A program made the translations under genes and the position numbers. Shown here piece after piece: positions 3,057-59,034 of a stretch of 64,000 nucleotides of DNA. How positions within the stretch are numbered: position 1 is the first letter of the stretch; each line of letters begins with the position of its first letter. The stretch is taken from IMG/VR virus record IMGVR_UViG_3300035070_003528, positions 37,466 to 101,465 of that record, one strand, 5' to 3'. Under the pieces are notes generated by a model, which was given only the letters and a program-made list of their open reading frames with translations, was not told the DNA's origin and made no database searches. The DNA comes from a virus.

Positions 3057-4203
3057 TTTTTAATTCGTTATACCGCCGGTCTACCCAATTATTATCATGT
3101 TTCATTTCTAGTGCTTTCCTAAATGCAAACAGTGCTTCATTGCGGTCGCCAATAGCCAGATAGCACTCGCCGACAAATCCATAGGTTGCCCAGTTATTCG
3201 GCTCTTTTTGCAATGCCCAATTAATGCAATGATGAACAAATGCATTATTATTCGATTCTATTGCCTTGTGTGCTGAAACGATAAAAGCTGGGTATTCCGC
3301 ATCATTGACGTATTTAATTGCCTGTAATTCATTTACCAGCGATTGTTTAACGCCGGTAAATGAGCAAGCCAGCATCAAAGTGACAAGTTGTTCGTCTATG
3401 TTCGCCTGTGGTACGAATTGAAGTTTTTTCAGTGTTGCGGCAAGTTCTTCTATTACAATGTTATCGCTGCCTCGTAAATCATTGGGATTAAGCAAACTCA
3501 TAGCCGTTTCTGGATAACGAGTTGCCAAGAACACACGACTGCGACCTTCTTTATACTGTCGCTGCATGAACGATTCCAATGTGTGTTTATGATAATGGAG
3601 ATTGATTGCCGTTGGATCAAATGAAGTTGCATACCCCTGCTTGCGTAGTTCGTGACCAAACGCAACATCTTCCCAGGCGGCTGTGGGGAACTCTTCTGGA
3701 AATCCACCGAAATTAAGGAAATCATCGCGATTCATCGAGAAGTTCGTTGTTAGCAAAAACCCAGTAGCGTCTGTTTTCCAGCCGGTGTTAGTTCGTAGAT
3801 TAGACCAATTCGCTTGCATCCCCATACGATCTAGCCACTGCATGAAACGAGTATCTAGCACGTCTGGATGAAATGGGCTGTATCCTTGTAATGCCGTATG
3901 TTTATTGTAATAATGGTGGATTTGATGACGTAGAATTAAATCTCGTTGCGGGAAGCAATCGTCCCCAACAAAAAGAACAGTATCCCCAACTGCCTCACGT
4001 GCGCCTACGTTACGCGCAACTGCTGGGCCACGATTAGTTTCATTATTGATTACACGCACAAATGGAGAGTTGTATTCAATATATTCTCCGCCATCGTTTA
4101 CAACAATAACCTCAAATTCTTTCGCTGTTTGATGGTCGTATTTATCTAAATGAGCGTACAAAATATGCTTGTTGTTGTATGTTGGGATAATTACACTAAT
4201 CAT
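3040..4203 (-). CDS. glycosyltransferase GT2 with C-terminal TPR
   Basis: MISVIIPTYN, VVNDG, GPAVARNVGA, FVGDD, GGFPEEF...WEDVAFG; TPR-like C-terminus. Start moved to the ATG at 4203. Confidence 0.9.
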   Translation of the reverse strand: MISVIIPTYNNKHILYAHLDKYDHQTAKEFEVIVVNDGGEYIEYNSPFVRVINNETNRGPAVARNVGAREAVGDTVLFVGDDCFPQRDLILRHQIHHYYNKHTALQGYSPFHPDVLDTRFMQWLDRMGMQANWSNLRTNTGWKTDATGFLLTTNFSMNRDDFLNFGGFPEEFPTAAWEDVAFGHELRKQGYATSFDPTAINLHYHKHTLESFMQRQYKEGRSRVFLATRYPETAMSLLNPNDLRGSDNIVIEELAATLKKLQFVPQANIDEQLVTLMLACSFTGVKQSLVNELQAIKYVNDAEYPAFIVSAHKAIESNNNAFVHHCINWALQKEPNNWATYGFVGECYLAIGDRNEALFAFRKALEMKHDNNWVDRRYNELKNDQQE

Positions 4204-35234: not shown

Positions 35235-36461
35235 CTAAACCATTTCTATTTCCCATGTTGGGTGCTCAAGCGCAGTTTTTATTATGTGGCAATTGCCGCA
35301 AATGTATGCCATATTATCCAGAGTTGATAATCCCCCCTTCGATGCGGGGATTATATGATCTATATGCATTGGAAGCCGATAGCCATTCCACGTTGATATA
35401 CCACATGTTGCACACTTCTCGTCTGGATTTACTTTTCTAAAAGCTCTCTTGGCAGACTTCCAATCTCTGTACACCTGCCCAGACGTTTCTTTTTTTCCGT
35501 TGCTGCCGCAAGTTTTACATCTTCCGGCACTTCTAACAAGTTTCTGATAATTTCTGTTGTCCGAAGCTCCACAATGAATGCATTTAACAACAAGCTCTAT
35601 CTTCTTATAGTGACCGTTGCGTTTCTCTTCGATAATTTCTAGCGCACCAACAATTTCTCCGATCTTACTCTTCGCGCTCAGTAACTTACCGGCCCCGCAC
35701 TTTGTGCATGAGGGACTTCTGCCATCTCTGAATAAGTCATGCACGTCTGTTGATTTTTGATGTCCACACTCTATGCACTCCACCATGACCCGGTGTCTCC
35801 CGGTGTTACTTCTTGTTACTGAGCTTATTACTTTTTGTACTCCAGAAATTCGATCAAGAAATCTTTTGGGGTCCAGAAATCTTTTGTCAGGCTCTGACTT
35901 AAGAAGACTTGCCTTTATCCTCTCGCAGTTACCGCACTTTTGTTTAGTTCTATAAATAAAATCAACCCCAACAATCTTTTCTTGGGAACATCGTTTGCAT
36001 TTAATCGGAATTCTTATTTTCCCTTGGGTATAATCAGAGAATCCGGTAACAATAAAATCGCCAAATTCTTCTCCGGTCATATCGTGACTTTTGTATCCAC
36101 TACGACAAGCCGAGCACGATCCAGAAGACCTAGGAAAAGAAGTTGGATCAGACTGAGTTACCTTGCCGCAATTCGTGCATTTTATATCAATCTTTCTCTC
36201 GCTATTGACTAGGTATGCATGAGAAATCGTCTTCTGGAACCCGACCACTGTCCCAATCTCAATGCAAGCTACACCTCCGGCACGACACTGTTTACACACC
36301 CCAGGAGTTGAAAGGAAGCCATATTTATTTCTGAGGTCATTATAACCGCAAGTTGTACACGTTACGGGCAGAAAATAAGCCCCGTCTTTTACGATGGTTT
36401 TTCCAATAACTTTTAATGGGCCAGATATTTGACCTATGTATTCTTTCATTGTTTTCTCCAA
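35235..36461 (-). CDS. HNH endonuclease with tandem zinc-ribbon repeats
   Basis: About five CxxCG..CxxC repeats, then CATCG...HIDHIIPASKGG...NMAYICGNCHIIKT. Confidence 0.88.
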   Translation of the reverse strand: MEKTMKEYIGQISGPLKVIGKTIVKDGAYFLPVTCTTCGYNDLRNKYGFLSTPGVCKQCRAGGVACIEIGTVVGFQKTISHAYLVNSERKIDIKCTNCGKVTQSDPTSFPRSSGSCSACRSGYKSHDMTGEEFGDFIVTGFSDYTQGKIRIPIKCKRCSQEKIVGVDFIYRTKQKCGNCERIKASLLKSEPDKRFLDPKRFLDRISGVQKVISSVTRSNTGRHRVMVECIECGHQKSTDVHDLFRDGRSPSCTKCGAGKLLSAKSKIGEIVGALEIIEEKRNGHYKKIELVVKCIHCGASDNRNYQKLVRSAGRCKTCGSNGKKETSGQVYRDWKSAKRAFRKVNPDEKCATCGISTWNGYRLPMHIDHIIPASKGGLSTLDNMAYICGNCHIIKTALEHPTWEIEMV

Positions 36462-54472: not shown

Positions 54473-55067
54473 TCTTCCTTTGTGTAAATCATGACATCAC
54501 TCGTTGCAAATAGATATAAGCCAATCCCAATCGGAACGATTAGTAACCATGCGTAATTTTTCTTATCAGGTTGCACATTATTATTATCACCAATAATCAC
54601 TGTGCTATCATTGGCTTCGATGTCATGGCTAAATAATCGAATTTCGCCACCAGATGTACCGTAGGATGATACGGCCGTTAGCCCACAAAATACTAGGGCG
54701 AAACAAATTAACCCAATTAATAGATACTTTTTCAATCCCAATCCTCTATTTCCCATTCTTCGTCTTCATTGTAAAAATTAATTAAATCACTTTCGTCATA
54801 ATGAAGCACATGCATACGCACTTGTAAATCTTCGTCTGACATATTACCGTCATAGGCATTTTGCAGTCTATCGTGCGCCCGTCTTCCTGTTTCCGCAAAT
54901 GAGACACCTGATTTTTGTTGAATTATAATAAACACAACACCAATTACCATCAAGCAGATTACAAACAATACGCCAAGAGCAATATACTCAGCGCCAAATG
55001 AAGTGGTCATCATGGTAATTGCAATGAGCAATAAAAATACGGTGAAGAAAATCGTGGCTGTTTTCAT
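54469..55067 (-). other. two small membrane proteins (54469-54756 and 54732-55067)
   Basis: Hydrophobic TM segments; overlapping ORFs. Confidence 0.65.
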
Positions 55068-55124
55068 TGTATCATTATACCAAAGTTATATACAAAAGAA
55101 TACGTTACTATCGTAATGTTGCAT

Positions 55125-55160
55125 AAAAAAATCCCCTGACCCATACGGTATCAGAGGATT
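55125..55160 (-). terminator. terminator ending the RNA cassette
   Basis: AATCCTCTGA...TCAGGGGATT followed by a T run. Confidence 0.7.
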
Positions 55161-55428
55161 AGTCGCAGTCCAGGTCGCTGTGTGTGAATCAACAAAGCTG
55201 GTAATATCGTCATATCCAGAGTTGAATCACAATACCCCTCGATGCTGCGATCTTGCGAATTCTTCCATTGGGGCTGACTTGTGGTGCAATGCATTCATCA
55301 CAACGCTACCTCTCGGCATTTCGCTCAGATGTCTCTCCATCAGTCACCTTGCGTATAAACCGACACTCTCAGGTGTGGCAGCTTCACCTATTCCAATAAA
55401 GACGTATTAGTGCCAATAGGCTTATCAG

Positions 55429-55502
55429 TCTGAATGGCAAGAATCGAACTTGCGACATCTCGGCCCCAAACCGAGCACTCTACCTAACTGAGTTACATTC
55501 AG
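55429..55502 (-). tRNA. tRNA-Pro (UGG), no encoded CCA
   Basis: CTGAATG/CATTCAG acceptor, CTCGG-TT TGG GG-CCGAG anticodon arm and GCAAG TTCGATT CTTGC T arm. Confidence 0.92.
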
Positions 55503-55504
55503 AA

Positions 55505-55587
55505 AGCATGGGTACGGACTTTTACCGTGAATCTCAACACAGCCACCCACGAGACTGTTTCGCTCTCTGAGGCAGAGATACCTCACT
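55505..55587 (-). ncRNA. degenerate tRNA-like element
   Basis: T-arm-like ACGG-TAAAAGT-CCGT followed by an acceptor-like strand; non-canonical middle. Confidence 0.4.
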
Positions 55588-55588
55588 G

Positions 55589-55664
55589 TGGGCAATACAA
55601 GAATCGAACTTGCAATTCACTGCCGTATACAACAGTGCGTTGTTGCCATTACAACTAATTACCC
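55589..55664 (-). tRNA. tRNA-Val-like with a 10-nt anticodon loop
   Basis: GGGTAAT/ATTGCCC-A acceptor, GTTG/CAAC D stem, CACTG-TTGTATACGG-CAGTG and a TTCGATT T loop. Confidence 0.75.
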
Positions 55665-55740
55665 AGAGTGCCGGTTTTAGATTAGGGACAAAACCGGCTT
55701 AAAAGAACCACATCATGGGGCGTTAGACGCTTGCCATGTG

Positions 55741-55815
55741 TACGCACCCCAGGAGTTGAACCTAGCTACTTACCGCTTATAAGACGGCTTGATACAACCG
55801 GTATTCTTGATGCGT
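55741..55815 (-). tRNA. tRNA-Ile (UAU) with an atypical D arm
   Basis: ACGCATC/GGTGCGT-A acceptor, GCCGT-CT TAT AA-GCGGT and CTAGG TTCAACT CCTGG. Confidence 0.75.
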
Positions 55816-55954
55816 AAATGAATGAATTTCCAGTCTACTCCCTGTCCGTATCATTATCGCTGTTAATTCAGCACGTCCGATGGTTTTACTTGGGTCGGGT
55901 TCAAGTTGCGATTTTATTTTTATTAAGCAGTTAGAATCACGTAACTAACTTCTG

Positions 55955-56031
55955 AGCGGATAGCAGGAATCGAACCCGCATGTTTCCAATTACCCTTTCG
56001 TCTGGGTAGAAACCAGAGGGGATATATCCGC
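55955..56031 (-). ncRNA. tRNA-like RNA lacking a normal D arm (UCU loop)
   Basis: GCGGATA/TATCCGC acceptor and canonical GGTTCGATTCC; the TCTGG-TTTCTAC-CCAGA hairpin begins only 7 nt after the acceptor strand. Confidence 0.7.
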
Positions 56032-56189
56032 TTGTAATGGGCTGGTTGCAGCCAGCCCATTCATTCTTGCCACAACTCACAGGATTTGGGCAGCACACTG
56101 GCAATTATGGCTCATGTGGCTATATAACTATTTTACGGAATTGACTTACTGTGTCAAGCGTCGATTATTCTATAGATACCACTTAATTT

Positions 56190-56304
56190 TACTGGGGGCT
56201 AGTCGCTACTCTAGCTTCTATGTTCGCTTTTCGTTCCTAGACCAACTGTACGTACCATTTATTGCAGGTAGTCGGGTGTCTGCGATTTTCCACGCCGTCC
56301 CAGT
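56190..56304 (-). ncRNA. about 115-nt tRNA-mimic-like RNA
   Basis: ACTGGG/CCCAGT end stem, D-loop-like GGCGTGGAAAATCGCAGACAC and terminal GCTAG-AGTAGCGA-CTAGC hairpin. Confidence 0.5.
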
Positions 56305-56455
56305 TTATTCGACTTACCAGTTTGAGGTTAAAAACCTTGGCAAGTTCTGTTTATTAATGGAACGCGAGGACATCCGAAGATTGTTGGCCCGTAGACTATT
56401 TTATCTCCCACTTGTTGTTTTGAGATTAGGGAGCCTCGCATAATTAATTCTATTC

Positions 56456-56555
56456 ATATGCCGACAGGACTTTTACCTGCTATATACATCCCTCTAATTT
56501 AATCGGATGCCTTCGCTCATGCAGACTATAAACTGAGATATAGAATGACGACATA
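56456..56555 (-). ncRNA. 100-nt tRNA-like RNA
   Basis: TATGTCG/CGGCATA 7-bp stem, GCAGG-TAAAAGT-CCTGT arm and two internal hairpins. Confidence 0.5.
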
Positions 56556-56710
56556 GATTTGTTAAAGATGACGGCCGGTTTATGTGGGACATTACTCCTC
56601 GTTCAGATTAGTAAGTCACCGGTCGTCTATTAGGTTATGTCTGTTATTATATATAACTTTGCGTTGATTGCAATAGTTACAAAGTGCTATTTCAAATAAT
56701 CTAGAAAAAA

Positions 56711-57454
56711 TCACACAAATTCAATGTCATCTACATCGTAAGTGTAGTGAATTTGATCTAGGTACGCCAAGAATTGAACACCACTATTATGTTTTATACC
56801 ATATGATTTATGAAAATCCTTATGTTGTTTGACACACAGAGTTATTCCATTCGTTTTGTTGTATTTCATATGGGGGGTGAATGTGTACGAGTTTATATGA
56901 TGGGCGTTTATTTTTCCACCAGCACTGCATACAACGCATTTGTAATCATCCCTAATAAAGATATACGATCTCCAGTCTTTATTTTCTTTGGTATCTCTCT
57001 TTGCTATACGATCTTCGTCAGTTAGTAGAGGATTCCATAATGGGTTATCTTTTCCAAACGACTTGCACCCATTCTTCTTTACAGCACACCCGCACGATGC
57101 AACAGTCCCCCTTCGTAGATTTTGCTTCTCGGCGATATGCGTGTTCCCGCAATCGCAAATGGCGTTCCAGTATGAAGATTTACTATCAGAGCGAGAAAAT
57201 CCAGTAACCGTCAGCATCCCATAACGTTCTCCGGTAATATCAATTAATCGGCTTAGGTGATCTGCGCATCTTCTGCAATAACTATGCATCCTCAGAGTTA
57301 TTGATGATTTTCTAATTTCGTACGATTGCCTACAGTTAGGGCATAAAACACAAATGGGTTTCCCTGACCAATTACTCAGTGAATCAAACTTTCGCCTATC
57401 AGCTTCCGTAGGGAATAATATCGTCTTGGGTAATTCGTTTCTTTTGGATGACAT
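56711..57454 (-). mobile_element. free-standing HNH homing endonuclease coupled to nrdJ
   Basis: DITGERYGMLTV, CDCG, SCGC and RDDYKCVVC...AHHINS...NGITLC..HK.FH. Confidence 0.85.
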
Positions 57455-59034
57455 TACAATTCACATACGCCGCTAGGGCAATCTTGTAGCAAGCTATCTT
57501 CTTCCTTTACATCTTCAAGAACTTGAAACTGTCTGCTACCGTCACGGTAAACCGTAATCCCCTTGCATCCAGATTCCCAAGCGTAGACAAACGCATTAAT
57601 AATATCTTGCACTGTCGCACTGTTTGGCATATTAATTGTTTTAGAAACGGCACTGTCGCAATTTCTTTGTACGGTAGCTTGTACATCTATGTGTTGTTTC
57701 CATGTTGGGACTTTTGCCTCGTCATCATTTAAACAAGAAACAAAAAACGGCTCATTACGAAGTGGGTGTGTAAATAAATATGTTTCGCCACGCTCGTCAG
57801 TTCGTTGGTATACTGGGGAGAATATTGGCTCAATACCATGTGAACATTCAGAAATAAATCCAATACTTCCAGTTGGTGCAATACTAACAGTTGTTATGTT
57901 TCTACGGCCAAGTTTTTGGCAATGATCTGGGATGCCGCGCTCTGCTCCCAGTTGCTCCGATGTCGAATAAGAGACCTGTTGAATGACACCCATAACCCTA
58001 TCTAGAAAATCAAGGCTAGGTTGTTCGCCATATTTCATTCTTAATTTTAGTAGCGAGTCTGCATATCCCATAATTCCTATACCAATTGGGCGATGGTTTT
58101 TATACCATTCCTCAAATTTCGGAGTAGGAAAGACATTTTTACTGCCAACATTATCAAGAAAGCGCGAAATGACCGTTACGACACGAGATAAACGCGCATA
58201 ATCAAAATTCCCGTTATCATCATAAAAATATTCGTGAGATATATTAATACTACCCAAATTACAGCTACCGTAGCTTGGTATAGGCTGCTCCCCGCAAGGA
58301 TTTGTAGCCTCTATTTTACACCCGCATGATTGATATGGGGTATTATTATTGATAGTAGTATGGAATAACAGGCCTGGATCTCCATTGTTCCATGCGTTTT
58401 TTGCTAAGTTGATTAATTGTAATCGTTCGCCATTGTCTCCGCTTCGGGCTTCTGTCATCCATTCGTCTGTAGCCATCACTGATTGATTAAAGTTGCCAGC
58501 GAATTTTTCGTCTTTATTTTGTTTTAGATTTATAAATTTATCTAAATCCTTGTGGTCAGAGCGCAATGTATACATAAGGGCCATTCTTCTGAACCCACCC
58601 TGAGTAATCATTTCTAGATAATCACTCACACGCAATGCCCAATTATTAGGGCCATATGCAAAACCGTGCGTACTCCCAGATACAGGGCTACCCTCTGGTC
58701 TTATATTAGTTCCAGTAAAGCCACACCCTCCACCCCGTTTGCCAACAGCCGCAACGTCGCCGAGAACGCTAACATGGTTTTCTAGATTATCTTCATCTGG
58801 GCCAACAACAAAACACGCAAACAAGCCACCATTGGCTGTACCAGAGTTAACTAAACAAGGAGAGTTTGGCAACCAAATGCGCCTGGAGAGATGTTCCGTT
58901 ACCTCCTGCTTGTACCAATTTGATTCCCCATCGCAAACATGATTGACAACCCGTTTTACAAGGTCGTCCCATGTCTCACCAGGGCGCAAGTATCTTTGCT
59001 CTAACAATCTTTGAACATCTTTTGAAAGTGTCAT
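57454..59034 (-). CDS. nrdJ: class II (adenosylcobalamin) ribonucleotide reductase
   Basis: PNSPCLVN, ACFV, GGGCG, TNPCGEQ, CNLGSIN, APTGS, SKTIN, KGITVYRDGSR and C-terminal CPSGVCEL; no NrdB gene adjacent. Confidence 0.92.
   Translation of the reverse strand: MTLSKDVQRLLEQRYLRPGETWDDLVKRVVNHVCDGESNWYKQEVTEHLSRRIWLPNSPCLVNSGTANGGLFACFVVGPDEDNLENHVSVLGDVAAVGKRGGGCGFTGTNIRPEGSPVSGSTHGFAYGPNNWALRVSDYLEMITQGGFRRMALMYTLRSDHKDLDKFINLKQNKDEKFAGNFNQSVMATDEWMTEARSGDNGERLQLINLAKNAWNNGDPGLLFHTTINNNTPYQSCGCKIEATNPCGEQPIPSYGSCNLGSINISHEYFYDDNGNFDYARLSRVVTVISRFLDNVGSKNVFPTPKFEEWYKNHRPIGIGIMGYADSLLKLRMKYGEQPSLDFLDRVMGVIQQVSYSTSEQLGAERGIPDHCQKLGRRNITTVSIAPTGSIGFISECSHGIEPIFSPVYQRTDERGETYLFTHPLRNEPFFVSCLNDDEAKVPTWKQHIDVQATVQRNCDSAVSKTINMPNSATVQDIINAFVYAWESGCKGITVYRDGSRQFQVLEDVKEEDSLLQDCPSGVCEL

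Follow-up and report, generated by a model that had tools for sequence, protein, structure and literature searches.

A probable stable-RNA operon of an uncultured phage, combining predicted decoding tRNAs with other structured RNA modules

In the tRNA region of bacteriophage T4 (NC_000866, 70908-72530), eight tRNAs are accompanied by a homing endonuclease gene and by two small stable RNAs, rnaC (species 1) and rnaD (species 2). These two, RNAC and RNAD, are described as ‘RNAs of yet unknown functions’ (PMC9697503). In engineered tRNA scaffold RNAs, and in the C4 RNA of phages P1 and P7 and the CI RNA of the satellite phage P4, a tRNA-like closing stem allows cellular tRNA enzymes to release and stabilise an RNA placed within or next to it. 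RNase P excises C4 and CI, which sit in the leader of the operon that they control.

The present analysis concerns a 1.5-kb gene-free stretch of an uncultured 101-kb phage, hereafter the cassette, with coordinates given as positions in the window, i.e. the whole 64,000-nucleotide stretch of DNA that was analysed. With a probability of about 0.7, the cassette belongs to the same class as the T4 tRNA region, a phage ‘stable-RNA operon’ made up of independent modules, decoding tRNAs and structured non-tRNA RNAs, with fast turnover. All of its elements lie on the minus strand, from 56673 down to 55125, and its transcription signals are the following (z values compare folding with that of shuffles).

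56646-56673, minus strand: promoter P1, sigma-70-like (TTGCAA, 16 nt, TATAAT; 10/12 matches)
56130-56157, minus strand: promoter P2, sigma-70-like (TTGACA, 16 nt, TAAAAT; 11/12 matches)
55125-55160, minus strand: intrinsic terminator (10-bp stem, 11-nt loop, then seven U; -17.7 kcal/mol, z -3.9)

P1 adjoins an HNH ORF at 56711-57454, just downstream of that ORF, and the terminator was overlooked by a consensus scan because its loop is 11 nt long. An earlier sequence-only reading of this DNA had described a cassette that lies between a promoter and a terminator, with a second promoter inside, and holds no credible ORF, and this description stands: the two promoter-like sites and the terminator are present, the longest ORF is 56 aa on the transcribed strand and 109 aa antisense, and none of the four ORFs tested matched a PHROG family. 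The two host-type promoters would drive polycistronic transcripts that end at the one terminator. Searches with Rfam models at E ≤10 over 54900-57000 gave no match to Y RNA/YrlA, GOLLD, ROOL or tmRNA, and ARAGORN called no tmRNA.

The first group of elements comprises tRNA and tRNA-like genes:

55428-55502, minus strand: unit A, canonical tRNA-Pro(UGG), called by ARAGORN; Rfam 62.5 bits
55588-55664, minus strand: unit B, tRNA-Val-like gene with a 10-nt anticodon loop, UUGUAUACGG; Rfam tRNA 41.8 bits
55740-55815, minus strand: unit C, tRNA-Ile(UAU), an ARAGORN cloverleaf whose D stem is only 2 bp long and whose position 8 is A; z -2.5
55955-56031, minus strand: unit D, predicted tRNA-Arg(UCU) with a relocated D element

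ARAGORN called A as Pro(tgg), B as an odd ‘Tyr(gta)’ and C as Ile(tat), whereas the Rfam tRNA model RF00005, for which the gathering threshold of at least 29 bits and a cloverleaf were required, passed only the Pro and ‘Tyr’ calls in cmscan; unit C went unreported by this model and is an ARAGORN call only. Like the canonical tRNA (RF00005), all four units have an acceptor stem of 7 bp, a discriminator base and a T arm, which carries UUCGAUU or UUCAACU; in A, C and D the anticodon loop is also of 7 nt, U33 and a purine at 37 included. They differ from it in the short D stem and A8 of C, in the enlarged anticodon loop of B, and in D, where no D hairpin follows the acceptor stem and a D-loop-like segment, UAAUUGGA, is found 3′ of the anticodon arm. 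The anticodon loop of unit C, CUUAUAA, is identical to those of the Ile tRNAs of two related phages, L006 and L007. No homologues of B or C were found in cultured phages.

Unit D scored only 32.5 bits with the Rfam tRNA model in a genome search, and cmscan gave just a 24.4-bit tRNA-Sec match. Copies in cr130_1, bajarodcaudo virus 1 and Microbacterium phage Magritte can be aligned with it, and it fits exactly a layout consisting of an acceptor stem, UAUCCCC, a 5-bp stem, a 7-nt loop, a 5-bp stem, NGAAAGGGUAAU..GG, a T arm and the acceptor stem. A pattern scan placed this relocated-D family in more than 116 viral contigs. The anticodons of 72 unique full-length copies were UAU (54), UCU (11), GAU (4), CCU (2) and UCG (1), i.e. 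Ile and Arg only, all in the canonical frame CU-NNN-A, with covariation in both stems; in unit D, UCU is displayed in the loop UUUCUAC. The base after the relocated GG was A in 15/15 Arg members and U in 56/56 readable Ile members; the window copy has GGA. In canonical tRNAs, A20 is an identity element for ArgRS. Every Ile member has A as its discriminator, Arg members having G, U or A, and anticodon, A20-like base and discriminator all track amino-acid identity in this family. Unit D looks like a decoding tRNA (Arg-UCU) rather than a mimic, and so, probably, does unit C (Ile-UAU). A literature search found no report of relocated-D tRNAs in phages or bacteria. If charged and used, the family would alter the definition of a functional bacterial tRNA and would show that phage tRNAs are overlooked by standard annotation.

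In the phage, AGA is the commonest Arg codon (25%), and isoleucine is encoded by AUA, and proline by CCA, in 25% and 47% of cases, respectively. The three predicted decoding tRNAs, Pro-UGG, Ile-UAU and Arg-UCU, probably read A-ending codons favoured by the phage, which encodes a tRNA-Leu(UAA) elsewhere in its genome. The cassette tRNAs would presumably receive CCA and be charged. Unit B carries three extra anticodon-loop bases and is either a newly disabled tRNA or a non-decoding mimic. In the computed fold its anticodon loop can pair internally to give an 8-bp stem capped by UAUA, and a search of IMG/VR with its anticodon arm returned chance matches only, with no homologue bearing the same arm.

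The best-supported of the non-tRNA modules is a tRNA-framed RNA:

56190-56304, minus strand: unit G, matched over the full length of model R1 (76.7 bits, E 1e-15)

It is composed of a 7-bp closing stem, a hairpin with the loop GAAAAUCGCAGA, a variable insert and a second hairpin, with the loop AGUAGCGA, immediately next to the 3′ strand of the closing stem. In the family, as captured by model R1, the closing stem of 7 bp is followed by CG, a GCGUG/CACGC hairpin with the loop GAAA(AUC)GCAGA, an insert and a 5-bp hairpin with the loop AGUAGCGN that borders on the closing stem; the window copy has one mismatch, at the second pair of the first hairpin. Matches were found in 87 places, and G-type RNA is present in well over a hundred viral contigs, often heading genes of the replication/recombination region in phages of about 40 kb. 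Unit G had no match in Rfam 15. In the MAFFT alignment A1, 95.7% of cells pair and 10/21 pairs show both-sided change, a level reached by 0/500 shuffles. Across the 87 matches, 98.8% of cells were paired compared with about 35% in slid-partner controls, and both-sided change was seen in 7/7 closing-stem pairs and 5/5 last-hairpin pairs. This last alignment (A3) was fitted to the model, and the independent alignment A1 agrees with it. Folding as single-stranded DNA would equally give rise to such covariation.

G contains fixed blocks of 17-26 nt. The invariance of its loops argues that the frame binds something, a feature left unexplained by a ‘scaffold plus payload’ design. A loop-loop kiss between UCGC and GCGA was considered and rejected, the commoner subtype lacking AUC, and hence UCGC, yet keeping the other loop. 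G was likewise rejected as a host gene: there were three exact matches among species genomes, and 1/101 genomes of one family carried it, namely the seed. The longest complements of the inserts and spacers in the phage genome, sought as antisense targets, were 11-13 nt, about chance level.

It has to be considered whether the conserved stems and fixed G blocks act as DNA, i.e. as recombination or homing-endonuclease targets that drive module shuffling. This is very unlikely, even with a 17-20-nt block of G identical across phages of 42% to 73% G+C, HNH genes beside the cassette in the window, L006 and L007, and an insert that is swapped between otherwise identical frames, those of the window and L007 copies being nearly identical around unalignable inserts. 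A Roseovarius genome, in which the 5′ hairpin of G stands alone with an HNH ORF directly behind it, also fits such a role; in L042, the missing 3′ half of G was not found within 1.5 kb behind the HNH ORF. Against a DNA role, G-U pairs occur inside the covarying G stems and therefore point to RNA folded on one strand, every G copy is oriented with the surrounding transcription, and no endonuclease gene is consistently linked to G.

A further structured module lies between units B and A:

55503-55587, minus strand: unit X2, an 85-nt RNA found also in L006 and L007 only

X2 is predicted to form three hairpins and two pairings between loops and downstream segments, with the last hairpin and a 7-bp pseudoknot helix making up a stack like that of the acceptor and T arms. 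Among the three phages, its 26 pairs show eight compensatory changes, four of them in the pseudoknot, and 0 disruptions. Two pattern scans for X2 returned L006, L007 and chance matches, and a model search of 0.9 Mb gave no other copy; L010 and L017 were set aside as carriers, their likeness being loose and unconvincing. The segments AGAGAGCGAA and GGUAAAAGUCC, with a seeming resemblance of X2 to the conserved regions CR-II and CR-III, prompted a comparison with RNase P RNA, and this candidate was rejected as RF00010 had no match at E ≤10 in the whole phage genome.

The surroundings of G and X2 bear on the question of whether these RNAs, or at least G, act in cis, as tRNA-like signals that direct host tRNA-processing enzymes to cut the transcript at fixed points or that stabilise or regulate downstream RNA, and not as free trans-acting RNAs. 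We regard this as possible, although short of probable. Behind many of the 87 G copies, at a distance of 20-50 nt, come the ribosome-binding site and start codon of a gene, these genes being unrelated, a placement that suits a leader at least as well as a free RNA; others directly follow tRNAs or terminators, and L039 has three copies, each ahead of an ORF beginning MKRKAR. X2 starts right after the tRNA discriminator base, as A-CAGUG, in 3/3 phages, and is followed by a U-rich stretch and, in L006 and L007, by a new promoter. However, in the window, L007, L035 and L036, G stands among tRNAs with no ORF behind it, and both of its loops are near-invariant over very different phages, which would be unneeded for a mere cutting signal. 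There is also no conserved gene downstream of G, and an all-against-all comparison of the ORFs around the 87 copies, made in search of a partner protein, found no family in more than six loci.

The remainder of the cassette is made up of smaller modules and two weakly folded segments:

56570-56627, minus strand: leader hairpin, with two stems, the basal one of 10 bp, and an asymmetric loop; z -3.7
56446-56548, minus strand: unit X1, sharing GAGCGAA and a UAAAAGU-loop hairpin with X2 and nothing more; z -0.7
56364-56439, minus strand: unit H1, closed by GCGAGG/CCUCGC; z -1.8
56305-56357, minus strand: unit U3a, an 8-bp outer helix around a small hairpin, then CGAA, abutting G; z -2.4
56036-56111, minus strand: unit H2, two hairpins; z -2.7
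55816-55954, minus strand: spacer, folding no better than its shuffles (z +0.3), with no match in relatives
55665-55739, minus strand: unit H3, two hairpins; z -3.1
55165-55427, minus strand: tail, with the third GAGCGAA behind a GAUG/CAUC hairpin, plus a long imperfect hairpin; z -1.0 and -0.45

The leader hairpin is common to L006 and L007, with two compensatory changes in its basal stem and one mismatch in the window copy, and U3a is shared with L007 (2887-2945), with two compensatory changes. No homologues were found for X1, H1, H2, H3 or the tail; the tail had no match in relatives and is not conserved. X1 was not scored by the X2 model at E ≤1 and is an inserted module, being absent from the same place in L007. 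The second hairpin of H2 has a 10-bp G+C-rich stem (56036-56061) that ends 4 nt before unit D, and that of H3 a 10-bp stem (55670-55698) that ends 5 nt before unit B. These two, together with H1 and the leader hairpin, are the four strong hairpins noted earlier; all are present, and the units that hold them fold better than their shuffles. The recurrence in three units of a hairpin followed by CGAA was also confirmed, GAGCGAA occurring at 56518, 55565 and 55326, i.e. three times in the 1.57-kb cassette compared with five times in the other 62 kb of the same strand and 0 times on the opposite strand. A hammerhead or other self-cleaving ribozyme was considered for this motif and rejected, there being no Rfam match and the GAAA not being kept in L006 and L007.

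As far as comparison of sequences can tell, selection maintains G, X2, U3a and the leader hairpin as structured RNAs. The sequence-only reading had taken most tRNA-shaped units for rebuilt, non-canonical members of a family of tRNA mimics. It was right in that the cassette is an RNA-only transcription unit, that several units keep an acceptor-like stem with an adjoining hairpin, and that G and X2, under structural selection, show the compensatory changes looked for while the tRNA-shaped non-tRNA units match no Rfam family; it went too far in counting as rebuilt two units that are probably working tRNAs, D and probably C having the look of decoding tRNAs.

The gene order NrdA, HNH gene, RNA cassette is common to the window, L006 and L007, NrdA of the window being 84% identical to that of L006 and 78% to that of L007. 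L006 and L007 are 97-99% identical to each other as far as the leader hairpin, past which they have only scattered modules in common. The content of the cassette is a mosaic of independent modules with fast turnover between related phages. The suggestion that the units are parts of a larger structured RNA is not supported, given their independent occurrence in unrelated phages and their swapping between near-identical relatives.

Rapid turnover of a tRNA array might also leave decaying pseudo-tRNAs or junk, and it is conceivable, though doubtful, that the non-canonical units are functionless remains of this kind. The relatives carry more canonical tRNAs (seven in L006 and six in L007) than the window phage, which has one; the cassette is hypervariable, with HNH genes flanking or invading it; unit B, which carries a 3-nt insertion, stands alone; and the spacer and tail fold no better than shuffles and lack homologues. 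This account fails for G, D and X2, all of which show compensatory changes (G and X2 are therefore not decaying pseudo-tRNAs), G and D in addition belonging to many-member families. Nor does it suit the leader hairpin and U3a, both common to relatives. The only elements for which it can be true are B, X1, H1-H3, the spacer and the tail.

An altered anticodon loop is known to let phage tRNAs evade defences that cut tRNAs. The tRNA-shaped units could act as decoys or sponges for host defence systems, for example anticodon nucleases, that sense tRNAs or cut them, as had been proposed from the sequence. Unit B has the complete body of a tRNA (elbow, acceptor stem, A73) with a loop unable to decode, and G and X2 retain the acceptor/T-like stack. 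Such a role is nevertheless unlikely: G and X2 have no anticodon-like loop to cut and therefore cannot soak up an anticodon nuclease, unit B is conserved nowhere, and D and C have the look of working tRNAs. That no tRNA-repair or defence-related gene was seen next to the cassette is a weak argument in the same direction.

In the favoured reading of a stable-RNA operon, the hairpin stacked on a 7-bp helix at the ends of G and X2 would form an acceptor/T-arm minihelix. Judged from these shapes, host tRNA-maturing enzymes would therefore excise both RNAs, with RNase P cutting on the 5′ side and RNase Z or E on the 3′ side, and the excised RNAs would accumulate as stable small RNAs. The fixed tRNA-like frame of G would then serve processing and stability, and its freely varying insert would be the working part. 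It may further be suggested, tentatively and at less than even odds, that G represents a large undescribed class of phage RNA with a tRNA outline and an elbow formed by two invariant loops (GAAAGCAGA and AGUAGCGN), that its frame docks on a conserved host tRNA-handling machine while the swappable insert confers a phage-specific activity, that bacterial translation accepts a non-cloverleaf tRNA, as the relocated-D tRNA-Arg would imply, and that the cassette is a toolbox in which tRNA shapes have been re-engineered. Annotation of phage tRNA clusters usually relies on tRNA finders and leaves the remainder blank; in this cassette, that blank contains at least two RNA families present in no library.

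Among known systems, the D-armless tRNAs of animal mitochondria (PMC9427863 and PMC2797822) share with the relocated-D family the lack of a D hairpin at the usual place in a predicted working tRNA. The phage family differs in keeping a body of 77-78 nt, a normal T arm and a relocated, GG-containing D-loop-like segment, and would have to function with bacterial enzymes and ribosomes. Compared with C4 and CI, the two loops of G are fixed and not phage-specific as antisense loops would be, and Rfam C4-type models gave no match to G. With the T4 tRNA region, the cassette shares a one-strand cluster of tRNAs for A-ending codons (those of T4 also include Arg, Ile and Pro), a homing-endonuclease gene nearby and small RNAs in the same unit, which are stable RNAs in T4 and would by their predicted shapes be so in the cassette. 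On the other hand, the tRNAs of T4 are all cloverleaves, and T4 rnaC has a canonical T arm, which G does not. Searched with filters off, model R1 had no match in T4, scoring at most 7.6 bits in the T4 region searched and 5.4 bits over rnaC. The 8-nt motif GAGUAGCG from the loop of the last hairpin of G occurs twice in the whole T4 genome, both times inside rnaC, where the computed fold places it partly in a stem; its presence in both G and rnaC is a lead, not evidence of homology. If G is a processed stable RNA, it would provide a testable relative of the species 1 and 2 RNAs of T4.

The source record (101,465 bp, with direct terminal repeats) is rated complete, and the window corresponds to its bases 37466-101465. 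The G+C content is 41%, and the majority of genes are on the minus strand, as is the RNA cassette. The large terminase shares <30% identity with every cultured-phage counterpart, the lineage therefore being uncultured. The cassette and its surroundings comprise:

57454-59034, ribonucleotide reductase large subunit gene, upstream of the cassette
56711-57454, HNH endonuclease gene, upstream, directly between the reductase gene and the cassette
56446-56548, minus strand, unit X1
56305-56357, minus strand, U3a helix
56190-56304, minus strand, unit G, a tRNA-framed RNA
55955-56031, minus strand, unit D, tRNA-Arg
55740-55815, minus strand, unit C, tRNA-Ile
55588-55664, minus strand, unit B, Val-like
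55503-55587, minus strand, unit X2
55428-55502, minus strand, unit A, tRNA-Pro
54732-55067, small membrane-protein ORF, downstream of the cassette
Elsewhere in the genome, outside the cassette, tRNA-Leu(UAA)

The window holds at least two HNH endonuclease genes (35235-36461 and 56711-57454). The transcription signals and modular make-up of the cassette were shown by several analyses, which upheld the promoters, terminator, lack of a credible ORF and four hairpins described in the sequence-only reading. Two promoter-like sites, with 10/12 and 11/12 matches, were the top-scoring in the 2-kb region scanned, the terminator folds well beyond shuffles (z -3.9), and all four hairpins are present. The longest ORF on the transcribed strand encodes 56 aa, and none of four ORFs tested matched phage protein families. 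The recurring motif GAGCGAA is strongly enriched, with 3 copies in 1.57 kb versus 5 across the remaining 62 kb on the same strand. ARAGORN calls three tRNAs, two of which pass the Rfam threshold; other Rfam families gave zero matches to the cassette even at E up to 10. No support was found for the earlier proposals that the units act as nuclease decoys or form one large RNA.

Unit G belongs to a large RNA family absent from Rfam. The 18-mer of its first hairpin is present in 12 other viral contigs, a looser pattern recovered at least 120 stretches, and a covariance model built on 11 copies gave full-length matches at 87 places, some contigs carrying second and third copies. The consensus consists of seven variable pairs, CG, GCGUG, a loop GAAAGCAGA (or GAAAAUCGCAGA) and CACGC, followed by an insert that varies (46-114 nt among the copies listed) and a second hairpin, of 5 bp and with loop AGUAGCGN, which directly abuts the 3' side of the closing stem; the next base is most commonly A (44%). 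The order of parts is tRNA-like, running from acceptor stem through D-arm-like hairpin, a substitute for the anticodon arm and T-arm-like hairpin back to the acceptor stem. Covariation is very strong: in a MAFFT alignment, which was not fitted to the model, 95.7% of cells pair and 0/500 shuffles equalled the observed values, and in the alignment of the 87 matches, which was so fitted and is hence biased, 98.8% pair and both outer helices change on both sides at every pair. In slid-partner controls, ~35% of cells pair. Searching Rfam with G gave no match up to E = 10, blastn found zero matches in cultured phages, and no protein was consistently linked to it; searches of host genomes led to its rejection as a host gene.

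It is proposed that host tRNA enzymes would cut the transcript at every acceptor-like stem, which would free tRNAs topping up the reading of A-ending codons, plus stable small RNAs; for G, processing and stability would come from the frame and activity from the insert. Between the window and the viral contig L007, the frame of G is near-identical base for base and the inserts are unrelated. On the main rival reading, G would work in cis and serve as a leader or as a signal for cutting. For many copies, a ribosome-binding site and start codon follow 20-50 nt downstream, and genes for repressor-like, SSB, RecT-like or exonuclease proteins are often nearby; the context is variable, other copies being directly 3' of tRNAs or of terminators. 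At L039 (11779-13087, minus strand), each of three G copies is followed at 16-30 nt by a small ORF starting MKRKAR, the repeat thus taking in leader and first codons. At L031 (5854-6148, minus strand), a further phage-linked RNA, the skipping-rope RNA (Rfam RF02924, 52 bits), stands directly downstream of G. In a Roseovarius genome (L042 7098-7159; also L280), G is represented by its 5' hairpin alone, right behind a terminator and ~20 nt upstream of where an HNH endonuclease ORF begins; the 3' half was not found within 1.5 kb.

Unit D is a tRNA-Arg whose build is unusual yet widespread. A blastn search of cultured phages with 55955-56032 gave matches in a crAss-like phage, 'bajarodcaudo virus 1' and Microbacterium phage Magritte, all in unannotated stretches (Magritte's within a tRNA array) and spanning the odd middle part beyond the T arm alone. 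The common layout is acceptor stem, UAUCCCC, 5-bp stem, 7-nt loop, 5-bp stem, NGAAAGGGUAAU..GG, T arm and acceptor stem. In IMG/VR, a scan whose search pattern preset the conserved blocks by design, CCCC and GGG among them, found this relocated-D arrangement in at least 116 contigs. Among the matches listed, the 72 unique full-length copies bear Ile and Arg anticodons only (UAU 54, UCU 11, GAU 4, CCU 2, UCG 1), loops follow the frame CU-NNN-A, and positions in the acceptor and anticodon stems show 4 to 8 pair types. Identity-linked features were also shown among these matches: the base 3' of the relocated GG is A in 15/15 Arg members and U in 56/56 readable Ile members. Discriminators also go with identity, Ile members invariably having A and Arg members having G, U or A. 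In E. coli, arginyl-tRNA synthetase uses A20 as a major identity element; the relocated segment therefore behaves like a D loop in a new position. The window copy combines UCU with GGA and U73. A literature search for D-armless tRNAs returned mitochondrial examples only.

Unit X2 is a predicted pseudoknotted RNA specific to the lineage, starting directly after a tRNA discriminator base in 3/3 phages, with a different tRNA each time. Three hairpins are conserved, and the loop of the second pairs with seven bases 3' of the third, so that the UAAAAGU-loop hairpin stacks on a helix of 7 bp, an acceptor/T-like arrangement as in G. The three sequences, 90% identical, show 8 compensatory changes, including 4 within the pseudoknot helix, and 0 disrupted pairs; a putative second pairing, AUCUC/GAGAU, is invariant in them. 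The X2 model found no further copies, and X1 was likewise without score. Together, selection for structure was shown in G, D and X2, and more weakly in the leader hairpin and U3a.

Two related viral contigs, L006 and L007, share the gene order reductase, HNH gene, RNA cassette, and their reductases are 84% and 78% identical, respectively, to that of the window. Their cassettes contain 7 and 6 canonical tRNAs, respectively, besides odd units. Identity between the two contigs is 97-99% across the reductase and HNH genes and as far as the leader hairpin; past that point few modules are common and almost every module differs, marking the cassette as a hot spot of module exchange. Of its three independent versions, that of the window has four items in common with the relatives: leader hairpin, U3a helix, G (L007 only) and X2. 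Further odd units are present (L007 3186-3300 and L006 4745-4950): one is a tRNA whose anticodon loop has 9 nt and whose T loop is preceded by ~45 extra bases, another is a unit carrying two T-arm-like hairpins, and in a third a 12-bp stem closes a T arm. An additional HNH ORF lies within the L007 cassette (3640-4095). The relatives' reductases (P0003/P0005; L006 1788-3761, L007 125-2098) are ~130 aa longer than the window's (658 vs 526 aa); LAGLIDADG or intein domains (PF14528, PF14890) occur in some homologues, the insertion being absent from the window copy.

The tRNA set makes sense in light of phage codon use, as Arg-UCU (D), Ile-UAU (C), Pro-UGG (A) and Leu-UAA all read favoured A-ending codons (AGA 25% of Arg, AUA 25% of Ile, CCA 47% of Pro, UUA 22% of Leu). 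Unit C is absent from the Rfam output and its D stem has just two pairs; its anticodon loop, CUUAUAA, is identical to that of the Ile tRNAs in L006 and L007, and it has A73. It is probably a working tRNA. Unit B combines an acceptor stem of Val type with A73, D and T arms that are both intact, and the loop UUGUAUACGG, which without GUA would be a normal Val-UAC loop; in the computed fold, its arm is able to form eight pairs with a UAUA loop. No homologues were found anywhere searched, and it may be a fresh pseudogene or a mimic. The 10-nt anticodon loop (55629-55620) contains the self-complementary hexamer GUAUAC, codon GUA beside anticodon UAC, through which two molecules could pair loop to loop. 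Strong helices (56036-56061, 55670-55698 and 55515-55506) stop 4-5 nt short of the 5' ends of D, B and A, so that, once cut by RNase P, each spacer RNA would carry a stable hairpin at its end.

The G model has no match in T4. The loop motif of G's last hairpin, GAGUAGCG, occurs in just 2 copies in the 168.9-kb T4 genome, both within the 139-nt rnaC; this possible sharing is a lead only, since the motif lies partly within a stem of the computed rnaC fold. The function of T4 rnaC and rnaD is still unknown (PMC9697503). In overall make-up, the T4 tRNA region is like the cassette.
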